From NCBI RefSeq assembly GCF_054482525.1, contig NZ_JBTHVG010000004.1: 64,000 nt of DNA. One strand, 5' to 3'. This stretch comes from a plasmid. The notes beneath the pieces were generated by a model. It did no database searches, had not been told where the DNA came from, and saw only the letters and a program-made list of their open reading frames with translations. The position numbers and the translations under genes were made by a program. Of this stretch, positions 17,249-64,000 are shown one piece after another (positions within the stretch are counted from its first letter, which is position 1; each line of letters opens with the position of its first letter).

Positions 17249-17419
17249 ATAAAAGGATTGTTGCAGATACGAAAGTCGTTAGAATAGCCGCGGACGCTTG
17301 AGGCTGTATGCCGAAAGCGTTTTGTGGATGGTATACAGCAGAAAGCCCCCTGGAGATTTTTTATCAATCAACCAGGGGCTCTACTGTAATGCCTAGACAA
17401 CATTATAGTAGCCTGATAA
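17249..17419 (+). repeat. Duplicated, truncated copy of the pnd promoter/leader
   Basis: 171 bp matching 18670-18840, with 8 substitutions and two 1-nt indels by hand alignment. It includes TTGTTG-16 bp-TAGAAT (17258-17285) and the first 10 pndC-like codons, then diverges. Confidence 0.85.
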
Positions 17420-17461
17420 TTTAGATATGTGTACATCCTACCGGAAAAGATACTTTTCAGG

Positions 17462-18669: not shown

Positions 18670-18840
18670 ATAAAAGGATTGTTACAGATACGAAAGTCGT
18701 TAGAATAGCTGCGGGCGCTTGAGGCTGTATGCCGAAAGCGTTTTGTGGACGGTATACAGCAGAAAGCCCCTGGAGATTTTTTTATCAATCAACCAAGGGC
18801 TCTACTGTAATGCCTCAACAACATTATAGTAGCCCGATAA
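18670..18840 (+). repeat. pnd promoter/leader (intact copy)
   Basis: The partner of 17249-17419. It continues into pndC and pndA. Confidence 0.85.
18760..18820 (-). ncRNA. pndB: PndB (Sok-like) antisense RNA, approximate limits
   Basis: Minus-strand TTGCCT-17 bp-TACTAT (-10 at 18826-18831), antisense to the pndC start. A terminator-like stem (agcccttgg/ccaggggct) lies downstream. The limits are inferred by analogy with hok/sok. Confidence 0.5.
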
Positions 18841-19013
18841 CCGCCGGAAGGCAATGGAGGGGCTATGATGCCACAGCGAACGTTTTTAATGATGTTAATC
18901 GTCGTCTGTGTGACGATTCTGTGTTTTGTCTGGATGGTGAGGGATTCGCTTTGCGGACTCCGGCTCCAGCAGGGAAACACAGTGCTTGTGGCAACGTTAG
19001 CCTACGAAGTTAA
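18810..19013 (+). CDS. pndC: PndC (Mok-like overlapping reading frame)
   Basis: The ATG at 18810 opens a frame that overlaps pndA, as in hok/mok-type loci. Confidence 0.6.
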   Translation: MPQQHYSSPITAGRQWRGYDATANVFNDVNRRLCDDSVFCLDGEGFALRTPAPAGKHSACGNVSLRS

Positions 19014-19343: not shown

Positions 19344-19496
19344 CGGATTTTCTCTCTGTATTTATGGGTAGTTATCGAACTGAATGTGCCAGTTTTTTCA
19401 GGAGACGGCAAAGTTGAGATGATTGGTTCTGATTCAAAGCATGAGTTTCCCCGGTGTGACGGGCATGTCGGGCGGATTTTGAGAAACAACAGATGT

Positions 19497-19527
19497 AAAA
19501 AAACCGACTGGTGAGGTCGGTTTTTTT
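19497..19527. terminator. Bidirectional rho-independent terminator
   Basis: aaaaaaa-ccgac-tggtgag-gtcgg-ttttttt. It has a U-tract when read on either strand. Confidence 0.85.
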
Positions 19528-19583
19528 ACTGTTCCGTTACAGAGTGGGTGGCTCTGGTCGGAAAAGAACTGTCTATAACTGAC
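19497..19583 (-). ncRNA. Predicted AgrB/IstR-like antitoxin sRNA (~85 nt)
   Basis: A minus-strand promoter (TTGCAG 19618-19613, 17-bp spacer, TACTAT 19595-19590) places the transcription start near 19583. The first 32 nt are complementary to 19740-19771 (31 Watson-Crick pairs plus 1 G-U). It ends at the terminator at 19497-19527. Confidence 0.6.
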
Positions 19584-41301: not shown

Positions 41302-42116
41302 CGGGAGCCTCCTTCAGTGCCTATAAGCGGACGCCAGTGAGATTTCTGAAGATTGAATTCCGCATGATTTTTAAGGCGACGAACACGATCTCCAGTGACC
41401 AGTTTTTTCCCGTCACCTGTAACGGTTTGCATTTGATCAGAAACATCCGGACGGGTGATCATGCCCTGACGCCAGAGAAGTGAGTACAGCATCATGCCCC
41501 GGTAATCACGGGTGAGGGTTTTCTGGTTGGCTTCAAGCGTCAGGTCGGCGTTTTGTCTTCCTTCCTGCCATCCCTGCCGTAATGCGGTTTCCCACACTTT
41601 TCGTTGCACGCTGTCTTCTGGAACGACGCTGCCTTCTGTACCCGGAGTGGCTGTTGTTGAAAGCCCCCGGAGAAGCCAGTCACGCCAGCCCGGTGGATTG
41701 CTGACAAAGCGTTCAGGGCGAATGATGGTCCAGACCCGGGAAGAGGTCCGGATTTGATCTGGCGTGATATGAGCTACGTCCTGTGCTTCATCAATAACCG
41801 GTGGTAGCCAGCCTTCCGGGCTAATCAGTGGCCGGAAATCGTATAAGGCATTAAGTGTGCTTTCCCGGGCGTTGAGTGCCTGAATCAGCTCCCATGAACG
41901 CTGAGCCTTGCCACCACGAAATCCAAGCGTTTTACCTGCGTCGGTCAGCATTTTCCAGCGTGTTTCTGACAGACTATCCGGCTTTTCACTTCGTGGTTTA
42001 AGCCATGCATTAATGTCAGGTGGTGGCGTATTGACACCACCTGGCGAGATGGTAGGGGAAGAAGAACAACCAGTAAGCAGTATTACTGGCAAAATGAGAG
42101 AGGTGAGTGCTTTCAT
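41298..42116 (-). CDS. traI: TraI lipoprotein (DotC-like)
   Basis: 272 aa with the lipobox LLTGC. Confidence 0.85.
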   Translation of the reverse strand: MKALTSLILPVILLTGCSSSPTISPGGVNTPPPDINAWLKPRSEKPDSLSETRWKMLTDAGKTLGFRGGKAQRSWELIQALNARESTLNALYDFRPLISPEGWLPPVIDEAQDVAHITPDQIRTSSRVWTIIRPERFVSNPPGWRDWLLRGLSTTATPGTEGSVVPEDSVQRKVWETALRQGWQEGRQNADLTLEANQKTLTRDYRGMMLYSLLWRQGMITRPDVSDQMQTVTGDGKKLVTGDRVRRLKNHAEFNLQKSHWRPLIGTEGGSR

Positions 42117-42571
42117 TTTTTCCGGTTCTCCGGCTGCATGAAGCTGACCTGTAACAAGCCCGGATATTGATGGATTGTTGCTCTCCAGGCTGTCTGGGCT
42201 TCAATAAGTCTCAACGTATTGGAAAACGTCATATCCCGGACGTGAAGGTTGACTGGTAACGGCAGGCGGACACCATTGTAGTTAAACTGCATCCCCCTGA
42301 CTCTGGCCAGTTCGTTCAGTAATTCAATTGCATCACCTTCCCAGTCAAAGGAAAGGCGATCGCTGTTAGCTGTCAGAAGATGAGACCCCGTTGAAACCGG
42401 AAGTTGGCCGGAAAACACACCTTTGTCCCATAATGTGTACTGAGTGTGCCGGGTAACCGCCACATCAGAGGCAGCACCGTAGTTACGCGGAACAGGAGTA
42501 TGCTGAGAAGGGGAGTTGCAGCCAGCCAGAAAAAGGGCGGCAAGACACCCCGCAGGTATAATACGGTTCAT
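42113..42571 (-). CDS. traH: TraH lipoprotein (DotD-like)
   Basis: 152 aa with the lipobox FLAGC. It is the first gene of the long minus-strand operon. Confidence 0.85.
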   Translation of the reverse strand: MNRIIPAGCLAALFLAGCNSPSQHTPVPRNYGAASDVAVTRHTQYTLWDKGVFSGQLPVSTGSHLLTANSDRLSFDWEGDAIELLNELARVRGMQFNYNGVRLPLPVNLHVRDMTFSNTLRLIEAQTAWRATIHQYPGLLQVSFMQPENRKK

Positions 42572-42779
42572 AATAATTCCTGAGCAGTTAAATCAGAATG
42601 GGATATACCGGTGCTCCGGTACAGACAGGATGATGTTTGTTTCCGGCTATACTTGCGTTACCGGAAATAAATGCCAGTGTGGCCAGGTAAATAGCCTCAT
42701 AGTTTACTGAAGGTGATTATTCCTGATACTGGCTGGTTGATGTGTCGTCAGACATAAAACGAATATGAGCGTAATCTTT

Positions 42780-42904
42780 AACGCTCCGCGCCGAATCGAT
42801 CCATGATGGATGACTCGACGATTTATGAATCGAACGTACCGGCGCTTGTCCCTGAAACAGTTCCCGGCCCTCGTCCGGATGACCTGCAATTCAGACAGGC
42901 ACAT
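42780..42904 (-). promoter_or_regulatory. Conserved tra leader module, copy A (upstream of traH)
   Basis: One of three ~125-bp homologous elements (with 62171-62293 and 63233-63357). In minus-strand sense it begins ATGTGCCTGTCTGAATTGCAG and ends GGATCGATTCGGCGCGGAGCGTT. Confidence 0.7.
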
Positions 42905-42965
42905 GTGCCCGTACACTCTTGTATCTTACTGAGTATATCAGAATTTATGTAAATTCAAATATCCT

Positions 42966-60692: not shown

Positions 60693-61376
60693 TCAGTGTA
60701 ATGTGATAGTCGTCTGCTCCTGTGTTGCACCCCAGACATCTTCTGGCAAGCTGGGCAGCCCGATAAATAGGGTGTGAAAGAGGGTTTCTCTGCGTTCGAT
60801 CCCGAATTGATGTTCGTATCCTCTCACCACCTGAAATCCTTCGTCGGAGAATATTAACTCTGCCGTTTCCAGAAGCTGCATAGTTTTGCGGTGTAGTGGA
60901 GTGATCAGCTGCAACGTAACTGGTGCCCTCATATCGCCTGTCGGTAGAAAACACTCTTCGGTGCGACTTAGTTGTAGCAGATGGCGTTTCCCGGAACAGG
61001 CCCGTTCAATGGATTCATTGAACACCCTCTCAGGCCATGGGCAGACATAAGTGCGCCAGCCTGCTTTCTGTAATTTACCCAGCGCAGCCCGAAAACGAAA
61101 CAACGGACATTCCCCGACAGTGGCAGAGCTGAGAAAGAGCGTATTCAGCGTTCCGATGATGGGAATATTGCGATCTTTTTCGGTCAATGCTTTTAACGCC
61201 ATGATTTCGCCAGGGAGACTACTGAACTCAGGATGTCTGCTGGCACCAGAAAGCCATTCAAGCAGGTAATGCCGTAATCCGGTTTCACTGGTTATATTGT
61301 GGTTTTCCTGTGCCGTTTTCAGGGCATTCAGTGCACACCAGAGCAACTGGCGCACGGGATGTTCTGTCGTGGTCAT
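60693..61376 (-). CDS. traC: TraC (positive regulator of transfer genes in R64)
   Basis: 227 aa ORF downstream of traB. Assigned by position and length only. Confidence 0.65.
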   Translation of the reverse strand: MTTTEHPVRQLLWCALNALKTAQENHNITSETGLRHYLLEWLSGASRHPEFSSLPGEIMALKALTEKDRNIPIIGTLNTLFLSSATVGECPLFRFRAALGKLQKAGWRTYVCPWPERVFNESIERACSGKRHLLQLSRTEECFLPTGDMRAPVTLQLITPLHRKTMQLLETAELIFSDEGFQVVRGYEHQFGIERRETLFHTLFIGLPSLPEDVWGATQEQTTITLH

Positions 61377-61629: not shown

Positions 61630-62163
61630 CTATGGGATGTTTACAAGGCGCTCCATAAAGCCGTGATGTTCGGCATTTGATACCAGTTCCAGGAGCAGGG
61701 ATATCCTCGACTCAGGCTGGAGAGTATTTTCCATTCTGAGGAGATACTGATATTGTGCTTTTGTCAGCCATATGCTGGAAGCCGCATTCAGCTCTTCCCT
61801 GGCTCCCGGATTTAGCACAGGGTCCGGGTAAATCTTCATTAATCCATCAACAATATCTTTATTGACGGGTTTTATTTCACCGCCAAACTTCACGAAATCA
61901 ATGAAGGCGCTATGGCGACGTAATGCCGATACTGGTTGAATGTCAAAATTAGCCAGAATAAAAAAGTACCCTGGAAAAATAGCGAATATTCTTTCACGGT
62001 AACAGCACCTGGAGTCTGCCCGTCTTATCTTTCTTGTTATTAATGGAGTCCATGGTACGACGTTTTGCTCATTCAGCCATGAGAATAAAGATTCTCTGTT
62101 TTTGCCGGCTGTATTATATTGCGCAAGATACCAGTTCCGGTTATTCAGGTGTTCTATATTCAC
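61630..62163 (-). CDS. traB: TraB, RfaH/NusG-like (NGN-domain) transcription factor
   Basis: It is collinear with RfaH by eye: NWYLAQY with SWYLLYC, IFPGYFFILANFD with LFPNYLFVEFD, FVKFGG with FVRFGA, and ESRISLLLELVSN with EARSMLLLNLINK. The GTG at 62163 is preferred over the track's TTG at 62184, which lies inside the repeat element. Confidence 0.75.
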   Translation of the reverse strand: MNIEHLNNRNWYLAQYNTAGKNRESLFSWLNEQNVVPWTPLITRKIRRADSRCCYRERIFAIFPGYFFILANFDIQPVSALRRHSAFIDFVKFGGEIKPVNKDIVDGLMKIYPDPVLNPGAREELNAASSIWLTKAQYQYLLRMENTLQPESRISLLLELVSNAEHHGFMERLVNIP

Positions 62164-62170
62164 GAAGTTC

Positions 62171-62293
62171 AACGCTCCGCGCAAAACCGATCCATGATGG
62201 ACGATTTTGCGATGTCAGGCGAATATGCTAAATCATATGTCTGAAGCAGTGTCCAGCCCATATCTGGATAAACTGCAGTTCTGACAGGCATAT
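62171..62293 (-). promoter_or_regulatory. Conserved tra leader module, copy B (immediately upstream of traB)
   Basis: Homologous to 42780-42904 and 63233-63357. It ends (minus sense) in GGATCGGTTTTGCGCGGAGCGTT, 8 nt before the traB GTG. Confidence 0.7.
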
Positions 62294-62578
62294 AACCAGC
62301 AGACTCTAGTACGTTCTGTATCGGTGATTTGGCGAACTCACAGATAAAGAACGGCTAAGCACTAATATCAGCAATACAGTGGCACAGTATTGTGATACGC
62401 GAAATAAAACATCAGCACGTCAGTTCAGAGTAAGGTCGCCATATATCGGGCATGAGCCAGATACAAATAATTGGGACACCGTCTGAAGTGATTTGCTTTA
62501 TTAAAGTAACTTGTGCTTGGTGTTTATGTTTATCAATTTGGGATCGCCTGTAAAGTGCAAAATGCAATTTCCATGAAA

Positions 62579-62601
62579 GTGTCCCCTTTAATGGGGACAC
62601 C
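62579..62601 (-). terminator. Hairpin after traA
   Basis: gtgtcccc-tttaat-ggggacac stem-loop directly after the traA stop. Confidence 0.55.
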
Positions 62602-62604
62602 TGT

Positions 62605-62913
62605 TCACATTTTTTCGTTTTCTTTAGCTGTATTGCTAATCATGAAAACGAACGTTCGCATCAGCACAGCAGAGCGAAGTGCATCATATCCTTCCAGATT
62701 TAAGTTCTTCAGGCTTCGCTTCAGGTAGGTTCGTACCGTTTCGGGAGAAAGCCGACAGTTCTGAGCAATGGCGTCGTAAGGAACACCCATTGCGTAAAAA
62801 ACGCAGACTTTAAGCTGGTTTGTTGATAGCTCGGGAAACATGCCTTCCAACAGAGTGATGGCCGGGAGTTTCTGTATCAGTTGAGGTGACATAGCAAAGG
62901 TCTCCGATGACAA
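62605..62913 (-). CDS. traA: TraA, LuxR/GerE-type HTH regulator
   Basis: 102 aa with a GerE-like HTH (LSTNQLKVCVFYAMGVPYDAIAQNCRLSPETVRTYLKRSLKNL). Confidence 0.75.
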   Translation of the reverse strand: MSSETFAMSPQLIQKLPAITLLEGMFPELSTNQLKVCVFYAMGVPYDAIAQNCRLSPETVRTYLKRSLKNLNLEGYDALRSAVLMRTFVFMISNTAKENEKM

Positions 62914-63232
62914 CTAAAAACGCTATCACTGAGTTCCTACGCTCATTGGTGATAGCCCAGACGGGGGTAGGAATACCGGCGTCATCGGAAACCGGCCAGG
63001 CTAATGCCTGCCCCGCCTGAGCTACCATAGATGACGACAAGAAATACAAGTTCCTGTCTTTATGGTATGGCAAAAAACGACGCCAAATGAAGAAATTAAC
63101 TTCTGCGCCGACGATGACTACGCGGGTTCCTACGCCCGATCACAGTTTTGCCTGTGACCAGTAAAGGGTACTTAGTATAACGCACCGAGTCAACTAACAG
63201 CTTAAAAAACATACAAAAAAGCGTCAAAACTT

Positions 63233-63357
63233 AACGCTCCGCGCCGAAGCGATCCAGGCGTGATGCTTCTGCTTTGTGGCGTTCGAACATGCTGGTCCAT
63301 ATGCACGAAACGGTGTCTGACCCTCGTCCAGACAATCCGCAGTTCTGACGAACATAT
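63233..63357 (-). promoter_or_regulatory. Conserved tra leader module, copy C (upstream of traA)
   Basis: Homologous to copies A and B. It ends (minus sense) in GGATCGCTTCGGCGCGGAGCGTT. Confidence 0.7.
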
Positions 63358-63446
63358 GAACAAATATGCTCTTGTAGAGGCTGTTGTTACACAATTGGCG
63401 GGTTGTGTAACAAATGGTTTTATCATCTAAGAATTATTCTATTTAC

Positions 63447-63700
63447 GATCGAATGATCTACAAAATGATTTTTTAAAGGTTTTTTAGATCGTTTAATTGC
63501 ATTAAAACAGAATATTATTCTGTTAGGTGGATCGGTTGTAAGATAAATGATCGTGAGCAGGACAAAAGTCGATCTTTTAATCCAAAAGAAGGATCTAAAG
63601 CAGAAAAATCTGCTTTTAAAAATAGATTTTATTTTTTTGACGCAGGTCAAGATTAACTTATTAGAGGTATCAGTGAGGAGGCACTGGAAGAGAAGAGATC
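63447..63700. other. oriV: GATC-dense AT-rich region, probable IncI1 oriV
   Basis: I counted 8 GATC sites in 254 bp, seven of them within 63447-63595. The region is AT-rich and lies downstream (minus sense) of a terminator hairpin, as expected for the repZ-CIS-ori order. Confidence 0.5.
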
Positions 63701-63892
63701 GTTGTAATGCTTTTCAAATTAACGTAAAGCGGGTATATTTCGGCTGTTATTAGCTGTGCAGAGGGTGGCACTCTGTGGAGCAAAGCGGCGAAAGTCGGAC
63801 GGCAGAATGCGCCATAAGGCATTCAGGAGAGATGGCATGTACGGGCAGTAAGTCAGAAGACTGAAGATGTTCCGGAAGCCATAAAAGGAAAA

Positions 63893-63943
63893 CCCCCACT
63901 ATCTTTCTTACGAACTTGGCGGAACGACGAAAGATAGTGGGGG
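63893..63943 (-). terminator. Strong hairpin terminator (candidate CIS terminator of the rep operon)
   Basis: Perfect 15-bp stem, cccccactatctttc / gaaagatagtggggg. In minus sense it is followed by ttttcctttt. Confidence 0.6.
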
Positions 63944-64000
63944 CCTCACAGAATACGGGTAAAGTATAATGAAACCGTACCAGAGATTCAACCCTGTGCA

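Follow-up and report, generated by a model that had tools for sequence, protein, structure and literature searches.

Specialised NusG paralogues are paired with sites in the leaders of their target operons in several described systems. RfaH is loaded at the leader site ops of long, horizontally acquired operons, including conjugation genes, and its known targets in E. coli are the F tra, hly, rfa, and cps operons. In the Firmicutes, LoaP is paired with a conserved 5'-leader stem-loop of its target operons, and in IncX plasmids the plasmid-borne RfaH paralogue PrfaH, which is essential for conjugation, binds the non-template strand at positions -42 to -25 of its own 5' untranslated region (UTR), at the site TCGGGGTCATCCGAGTCG (PMC11880322). 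A structured leader is also found in front of a conjugation regulator gene in the FinP/traJ system of F-like plasmids. Here we describe a folded leader element of about 150 nucleotides (nt) that is present in three copies, associated with traH, traB, and traA, in a stretch of 64,000 nt from an IncI1 resistance plasmid (contig NZ_JBTHVG010000004.1). This whole stretch is referred to as the window, and the element is probably a still-undescribed signal for long transfer operons.

IncI-complex plasmids are major carriers of extended-spectrum β-lactamase (ESBL) and AmpC genes, and traB and traC have reportedly been known to be essential for transfer since 1993. Other studies found traBC to be essential (PMC10286972, PMC4288162) and TraB to be required both for pil transcription and for transfer (PMC5013300). 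By one count, IncI-complex plasmids hold 45% of all plasmid-borne NusG-family genes, and the TraB protein of R64 was named as a homologue in the same study, in which the TraB site was not defined (PMC11880322). The TraB protein encoded in the window matched the Pfam NusG family at threshold, and was aligned to E. coli RfaH over residues 2 to 154, covering both domains. The best match in PDB was 9ik0 (E 5.9e-12; 157 residues), which we take to be the crystal structure of the IncX3 PrfaH protein, the deposit label being only "RfaH". The match to the NCBIfam RfaH model (E 7.7e-11) reached 42 bits, far below the cut-off of 144.5 bits, and by its sequence TraB is therefore classified as an RfaH/PrfaH paralogue and not as an RfaH equivalog.

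Searches with the traH-proximal segment by blastn and nhmmer identified two other copies in the window, at positions 62168-62293 and 63231-63356, and a covariance model, which was used to set the final limits (Table 1), recovered exactly three copies, all on the minus strand, with scores of 120 to 130 bits. The copies were 64% to 68% identical in pairwise comparisons over about 150 nt, with at most 3 gap columns, whereas the 150-nt flanks on both sides aligned at 39% to 47%, which equals the global-alignment background. An exact 28-mer had no match in any of 100 shuffles. Copies 1 and 2 flank traA (62605-62892), and the 3' end of copy 3 is located about 204 nt upstream of the traH start at 42571. 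A sequence-only reading of this DNA had placed a third copy of a ~125-bp element at the head of the traH-to-excA operon, about 200 bp upstream of traH. Copy and distance were borne out, but the length was not: the similarity that was said to extend 25 nt further upstream is real, and belongs to the element itself, which is therefore about 150 nt long. The three upstream flanks quoted in that reading were correct as written, but its description of the copies as identical does not hold at the identities given above. It had also suggested a search of the rest of the plasmid, and in the complete plasmid NZ_CP024152.1 (87,351 bp), which matches the window at 100% identity both upstream of traH and across traA-traB, we found the same three copies and no fourth (nhmmer --max).

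The element is a folded nucleic acid and not a promoter. In 17 diverse copies, RNAalifold predicted a 20-bp long-range helix, followed by a hairpin containing GGATC (SL-II) and a 3-bp GCG stem. The long-range helix joins ...AGAG(Y)nnn...CATATGCCT to AGRCATATG...ATGTTCG, and 19 of the 29 pairs kept pairing through double substitutions, while the GGATC motif was invariant in 17 of 17 aligned sequences. Because this helix covaries, what had been taken for an upstream flank is the 5' arm of the large stem-loop (SL-I). A model-based alignment of 91 hits, corresponding to 52 distinct sequences, was compared with slid controls in which the 3' partner was shifted by 1 to 3 columns. Standard pairs occupied 89.8% of the cells, as compared to 28% to 46% in the controls, and 20 of the 29 pairs had changed on both sides. 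The covariation score was 0.407 versus 0.04 to 0.09 in the slid controls, a value reached by none of 500 shuffles. Full SL-I structures with the inner helix and the apical hairpin, examined in 20 distinct sequences from IncI1, IncK, and related plasmids, showed 89% pairing versus 29% to 45%.

SL-I of the traH copy has a basal helix, the internal loop GUCUGAAUU, a further helix that reads GCAG/CUGU (CUGC instead of CUGU in the traB copy), and, at its apex, the hairpin CCGG(ACGAGGG)CCGG. The apical stem varied between CCGG/CCGG, CCAG/CUGG, GUCUG/CAGAC, UUUGA/UCAA, and GGCUGA/UCAGCC around a constant loop, ACGAGGG, which reads AUAUGGG in traB copies. In SL-II, 3 of the 4 GAAU/AUUC pairs showed compensatory changes. 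Single-sequence folds of 6 copies gave the same architecture, with z-scores of -1.6 to -4.6. G-U pairs made up 12.3% of the paired cells on the sense strand, and when the same pairs were read on the opposite strand the pairing fell from 89.8% to 80.6%, a modest margin; for both reasons the structure is assigned to the gene-sense strand. No Rfam 15 family matched any of the copies at the gathering threshold or at E-values up to 5-10.

The distribution of the element ties it to traB. We examined traB homologues from plasmids, 13 genome contigs, and metagenome contigs, and in every one with enough upstream sequence (TraB identities of 51% to 99%) the element was located directly before the start, ending 3 to 11 nt before the conserved sequence (A/G)TG AAT ATT GAA. 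A Salmonella Gaminara plasmid, with 81% identity in TraB and about 74% in the traA-traB DNA, contained copies at the same three positions as the window. A single copy, directly before traB, was found in an IncK2/Z plasmid, Enterobacter pOP-I, and a Salmonella Inverness plasmid (TraB identities of 50% to 63%), and a full-sensitivity search of the traE-traH regions of IncK2/Z and pOP-I gave no second copy. Since every lineage has the element at traB and the traA and traH copies were found only in the IncI1 and Gaminara lineages, the sequence comparisons indicate that the traB position is ancestral and that the other two copies are additions of the IncI1/Gaminara lineage. Between the IncI1 and Gaminara plasmids, the traH promoter block and the element were conserved, with compensatory changes in the stems, whereas the 200 nt downstream had diverged, a contrast that points to selection on the traH copy. 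In IncK2/Z, the one module before traB is followed by about 43 kb of almost wholly co-oriented genes down to excA, a layout that would fit a single loading event at the 5' end, as for RfaH on the F tra operon.

Because the element is at home before the gene for the RfaH-like protein TraB, it is probably the signal that lets the plasmid transcribe its long transfer operons. In the reading that we favour, for which we consider the balance to be about even, it is transcribed as a leader, from which TraB is loaded onto RNA polymerase so that transcription can extend over long distances. The comparisons show that the element is repeated, that its fold is conserved, that it is strictly linked to traB, and that TraB is homologous to RfaH, and the reading builds on these findings. 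Ancestrally, one module would have stood before traB, and in the IncI1/I-gamma lineage the leader would have been copied to the head of the traA unit and, as a promoter-bearing module, to the head of the ~22-kb traH-to-excA block for the type IV secretion system (T4SS). Transcription of the leader would begin at an extended -10 promoter immediately ahead of the traH copy, whereupon TraB, possibly together with TraC, would be loaded onto the elongation complex at the 3' part of the leader (GGATCGATTCG...GCGCGGAGCG). The loaded polymerase would then resist pausing, Rho, and termination across the long operon. Such a mechanism would mirror those of ops and RfaH and of the site in the IncX prfaH 5' UTR, neither of which has a counterpart of the large covarying SL-I. 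This stem-loop may serve to position or pause the polymerase, as an RNA ligand of TraC or TraB, or to stabilise the 5' end. We infer that transcription of the traH copy starts at the predicted promoter, that this copy is acted on by TraB, and that antitermination is the result.

The candidate extended -10 sequence at traH has its last hexamer base (42932) 7 nt upstream of the 5' end of the element at 42925, and the Gaminara plasmid has TGATATAAT at the same position, inside a block of near-identity. The element is accordingly placed, by prediction, at the very 5' end of the traH transcript, with the RNA 5' end near 42925. A consensus promoter scan that required a -35 box found nothing at the traH copy. 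For the traB copy, the primers used by Poidevin et al. (2018) were located on the window. Those fusions of traB to lacZ that start at 62502 or 62550 contain the whole element and were reported to be insufficient for expression, whereas a fusion starting at 62604 was active and responded to TraA (PMC5801416). These results would place the traB promoter near 62528-62556 and give a leader of about 360 nt, with the element some 210 nt from its 5' end; by the fusion ends, the promoter would be at least 240 nt upstream of the copy. They also indirectly support the transcription of the traB copy. The response of traB to TraA was traced to 62551-62604, about 240 nt ahead of the element. It was also noted that this segment on the minus strand, the 54 bp essential for traB::lacZ expression (PMC5801416), includes the terminator-like hairpin of traA, GTGTCCCC...GGGGACAC, as well as the sequence TTTACA, which is probably the -35 box of the traB promoter since it is cut in the shorter, silent construct.

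The IncX prfaH leader is a close parallel. In both systems the cis site, a candidate one for TraB, is located in the leader of the regulator's own gene, tens of nucleotides before the start and ahead of the T4SS genes, and both leaders contain CGGGG(A)TC...TCG...GAGCG. The IncX PrfaH leaders read CGGGGTCATCCGAGTCGAGAGAGCG and the TraB leaders CGGGGATCGGTTCG.GCGGAGC(G/C), and the spacing to the start codon is similar; when IncX1, IncX3, and FII-type leaders are taken together they read CGGGGT(C/T)ATCCGAGTCGAGAGAGCG, compared with CGGGGATCGGTTCG.GCGGAGC or CATGGATCGATTCGGCGCGGAGCG in TraB leaders. The 3' part of the element thus bears a suggestive resemblance to the ops-like site of IncX PrfaH. 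The systems differ in that IncX needs about 18 nt within a 62-nt UTR, whereas the IncI element adds an 87-nt covarying stem-loop and a second hairpin, is present in up to three copies per plasmid, and would serve TraB, which also needs TraC. With RfaH and ops the locus has in common, on the prediction made here for TraB, a NusG paralogue loaded at a leader site of long operons, and some copies may fit a consensus-pause arrangement, with G at -10 and C|G at -1/+1, as GGATCGATTC|G. Unlike RfaH, TraB is encoded in cis, immediately downstream of the site, and in the alignment its residues differ at the positions that we take to be the ops-contacting ones in RfaH. The pairing with a conserved leader stem-loop recalls LoaP, but LoaP belongs to another clade and host, TraB scored only 17.6 bits against the NCBIfam LoaP model, and no strong terminators were evident downstream of the element.

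Several results weigh against the loading of TraB at the element. The similarity to the PrfaH site is short and its register ambiguous, the MAFFT register being different from the one aligned by eye. SL-I was absent from the IncX leaders, with no match at E < 0.3 in IncX1, IncX3, IncX6, and FII-type leaders when the covariance model was run with filters off, and a much smaller signal therefore suffices in IncX. Canonical ops, GGCGGTAGnnTG, was absent from the element in a search of the window, which gave two 1-mismatch matches elsewhere versus 2.7 expected by chance, and the Rfam JUMPstart covariance model matched none of the copies. As terminators, the hairpins after the traH and traA copies were weak, and they did not surpass shuffled sequences. 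The GGAG of the 3' motif is, at traB, the presumed Shine-Dalgarno sequence of that gene; the motif would then double as a ribosome-binding site, and its conservation there could be partly translational. Furthermore, the expression of nikB, a gene that lacks a copy, also rises in Hft mutants (PMC4288162), and the TraA/B/C circuit therefore has other routes of action as well. Finally, the transcription start at the traH copy is predicted, and we infer the action of TraB on the element from the comparisons described above. A variant that we consider unlikely is that TraB is a proteobacterial RfaH-clade factor whose recruitment needs the large structured RNA (SL-I and SL-II), possibly read by TraC, beside or instead of a short non-template DNA site, in which case features of the ops and LoaP modes would be combined in one system. 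On this variant, the three copies would define a self-amplifying circuit, with TraB being loaded on its own leader, and this circuit would set the transfer-competent state of IncI plasmids.

Table 1. Positions in the window of the leader copies, of the parts of the traH copy, and of the adjacent genes
Feature	Position	Strand	Evidence or remark
Copy 1, upstream of the Hft/C4-like region and traA	63229..63378	minus	covariance model
Copy 2, before traB	62167..62313	minus	covariance model; ends 3 nt before the annotated GTG start (62163)
Copy 3, head of the traH...excA block	42776..42925	minus	covariance model 130.2 bits, E 5.6e-31; nhmmer E 1.8e-49
Candidate extended -10 promoter, TGATATACT	42932..42940	minus	read from sequence; predicted
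SL-I, 87-nt irregular stem-loop	42832..42918	minus	minimum free energy -53.9 kcal/mol, z -2.6; covariation
SL-II hairpin, CGUCGAGUCAUCCAU CAU GGAUCGAUUCGGCG	42789..42820	minus	fold and covariation
GGATCGATTCG, candidate ops-like TraB-loading site	42792..42802	minus	invariant columns; likeness to the IncX PrfaH target, putative link
3' motif GCGCGGAGCGTT, after SL-II	42780..42791	minus	
Hairpin GAGCGU...ACGCUC engaging the 3' motif, then AUAUUCGUUUU; weak terminator-like site, fold no better than shuffles	42767..42786	minus	
traH, DotD-like lipoprotein, first gene after copy 3	42113..42571	minus	
traA, LuxR / sigma-70 region 4-type helix-turn-helix protein	62605..62892	minus	
traB, RfaH/PrfaH-type NusG paralogue	61630..62163	minus	Pfam NusG, NCBIfam, and PDB matches
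traC, regulator required together with TraB	60693..61376	minus	

The strong support for the fold would also suit a cis-regulatory RNA that acts independently of TraB, by controlling mRNA stability or translation, or as the target of an antisense or small RNA, perhaps with a protein of the ProQ/FinO family as in FinP/traJ-like fertility inhibition. We regard this as a possible explanation, although a tentative one with a clearly smaller share of the probability than TraB loading. The 3' motif of the traB copy includes the GGAG ahead of the start codon, and at traA and traH the motif pairs in each case with a complementary sequence further downstream. Moreover, the plasmid encodes a ProQ/FinO protein, as do F-like plasmids with FinP/traJ, and Poidevin et al. 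mention unpublished effects of hfq on the expression of traA and traBC. However, the Shine-Dalgarno-like motif is not adjacent to a start codon in the traH and traA copies, and translational control is therefore not the common function. Simple scans detected no promoter-like site, and hence no antisense promoter as in FinP/traJ, on the opposite strand of the element, and the sense strand pairs better than the antisense strand. The element also differs from FinP/traJ in being repeated at structural operons and in having no sequence or Rfam similarity to it. A TraB-independent RNA also leaves the tie between the element and a NusG paralogue in every lineage unexplained.

The model of the sequence-only reading corresponds to a DNA promoter or operator module, common to three transcription units and read by a single regulator of initiation, for which TraA or TraC would be examples; we consider it improbable. 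Each unit does have a copy at its head, the expression of traB::lacZ is raised by TraA in trans, and a good extended -10 sequence is located immediately upstream of the traH copy. But covarying stems are unexpected for a duplex site bound by a protein, and IncK2/Z plasmids have the element without having traA. The shared promoter that had been suspected in the upstream flank is not supported, as ACAAGAG(T/C)nnn in this flank forms the 5' arm of a helix whose partner, ...ATGTTCG, is located about 85 nt downstream, with many compensatory changes. The sequences further upstream are unrelated among the three copies, and promoter scans found no common -35/-10 pair inside or at the 5' edge of all of them. 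The traB::lacZ fusions described above that contain the whole traB copy with 190 to 240 nt upstream of it were silent (PMC5801416), and the response to TraA maps outside the element. A single regulatory input to the units that carry a copy is nevertheless plausible, and is likely to be the elongation factor TraB (with TraC) and not a promoter-binding protein. It would not extend to the whole transfer regulon, as had been claimed, since trbABC and nikAB have no copy.

A leader-peptide attenuator was considered because of a mini-open reading frame (mini-ORF), ATG GAT CGA TTC GGC GCG GAG CGT TAA (MDRFGAER), but is very improbable. The mini-ORF is found in the traH and traB copies of IncI1, with peptides that are alike but for one residue, and runs in frame into traB in pOP-I-like plasmids. 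However, the traA copy has CTG in place of the ATG, and the copies of IncK2/Z and of L018-L022 have GGG. No Shine-Dalgarno sequence precedes the mini-ORF, and in IncK2/Z a 1-nt deletion shifts the frame while the nucleotides are kept. As an observation in its own right, the mini-ORF in the more general form ATG GAT CGN TTY GGC/TGC GCG GAG CGT stop (MDRF[G/C]AER) overlaps GGATC in the IncI1 traH and traB copies; the corresponding sites are located at approximately 42789-42812, 62178-62202, and 63242-63266 on the minus strand. Conservation of the mini-ORF does not extend to the traA copy, IncK2/Z, or L018-L022.

A protein-coding reading, whether of this mini-ORF or of the small ORFs of the sequence-only reading (42704-42916 and 63202-63426), was rejected because neither the frames nor the start codons are conserved. 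It had been observed correctly that these two ORFs have only (I/L)RRGAL in common, and that the conservation is at the level of the nucleotides or the RNA and not of a protein; the reading frames differ among the copies, and the deletion in the IncK2/Z copies breaks every frame although the nucleotides are still conserved. That the copies, as three dispersed direct repeats on one plasmid, are a functionless relic of duplication or a small mobile repeat is barely credible, given that the same three positions are kept in a plasmid about 74% identical at traA-traB with compensatory changes in the stems, that there are no terminal inverted repeats or target duplications, and that the orientation is always that of the downstream genes. 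Two further candidates were set aside. An intrinsic terminator after the traH and traA copies was rejected because the hairpins are weak, not conserved in form, and at the level of shuffles, and a single-strand promoter of the Frpo type because no -35/-10-like boxes are visible in the stem and the element is located outside the leading region.

The full-text literature that we searched described no repeated or structured leader before traA, traB, and traH, and no cis site for TraB or cis target for traB/traC; the 1993 paper on R64 traABCD was outside its scope and may note the similarity. If TraB is loaded as proposed, the element would be a structurally distinct addition to the small set of recruitment signals for NusG paralogues. 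The question is open to direct testing, since the element is well delimited at ~150 nt and has three natural copies, clear stems, and a GGATC that is invariant; the element also offers a handle on how the 22-kb T4SS block and the 13-kb pilus block are switched on jointly.

The segment upstream of traH and the traA-traB segment each matched about 1,260 plasmids in PLSDB at identities of at least 99%, and the matches were typed as IncI1/I-gamma, MOBP, and MPF_I. The order of genes on the minus strand of NZ_CP024152.1 is repA (divergent), traA, traB, traC, pilI-pilV, and the shufflon with rci, followed by traE, traF, a gene for a histidine phosphatase, traH...traY, and excA. For TraC, searches of Pfam and NCBIfam gave only a borderline match to DUF2913, in a homologue.

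Other features were observed in the leaders of traA and traB. At traA and traB, a hairpin precedes the copy by 20 to 30 nt (63384-63413 and about 62318-62345, minus strand), whereas none is present at the traH copy. As judged by eye, its stem differs between lineages and yet remains complementary, also in L007, L008, L010, and L014-L022, while the loop keeps the sequence CCGCCAA (TCGCCAA at traB in IncI1). The hairpin has the look of an additional part of the ancestral traB leader. The traB leader also contains a hairpin or palindrome, CAATAC..GTGCCAC..GTATTG, at 62372-62392 on the minus strand, the arms of which change complementarily in L048 and in the Gaminara plasmid (CAATGTGTG/CACACATTG). 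Kim et al. are said to have mapped a traA promoter in 1993. In the traA leader we noted a candidate promoter at about 63435-63470 on the minus strand, TTGTAG-16 nt-TAGAAT, where the Gaminara plasmid has TATAAT. Two GATC sites are located in the spacer of this promoter, and pairs of GATC sites recur upstream of traB in L020, L022, and the Inverness plasmid; these sites may reflect Dam-methylation-sensitive control of transfer.

Ordinary features of the IncI1 backbone were recognised by Rfam elsewhere in the window, namely the repZ pseudoknot at 63885-64000, which is interrupted by the window end, and two sok-like antitoxin RNAs and an AgrB-like antisense RNA (17292-17449, 18713-18870, and 19495-19582). 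Next to copy 1, the high-frequency-transfer region "Hft" of pESBL (Yamaichi 2015, Poidevin 2018) maps to 62915-63184 on the minus strand. This region contains a full Rfam C4 antisense RNA at 62945-63032 (77.5 bits), along with sub-threshold matches to c4-a1b1 at 63119-63171 (E 4e-6) and to an isrK-like RNA at 63073-63158. By sequence, the architecture of Hft corresponds to that of the immI antisense switch of phage P1, placed between leader copy 1 and traA. No paper that links C4 to Hft was found in the literature searched, and a switch of the C4 type could explain the "superspreader" plasmids that arise from transposon insertions at both ends of Hft.
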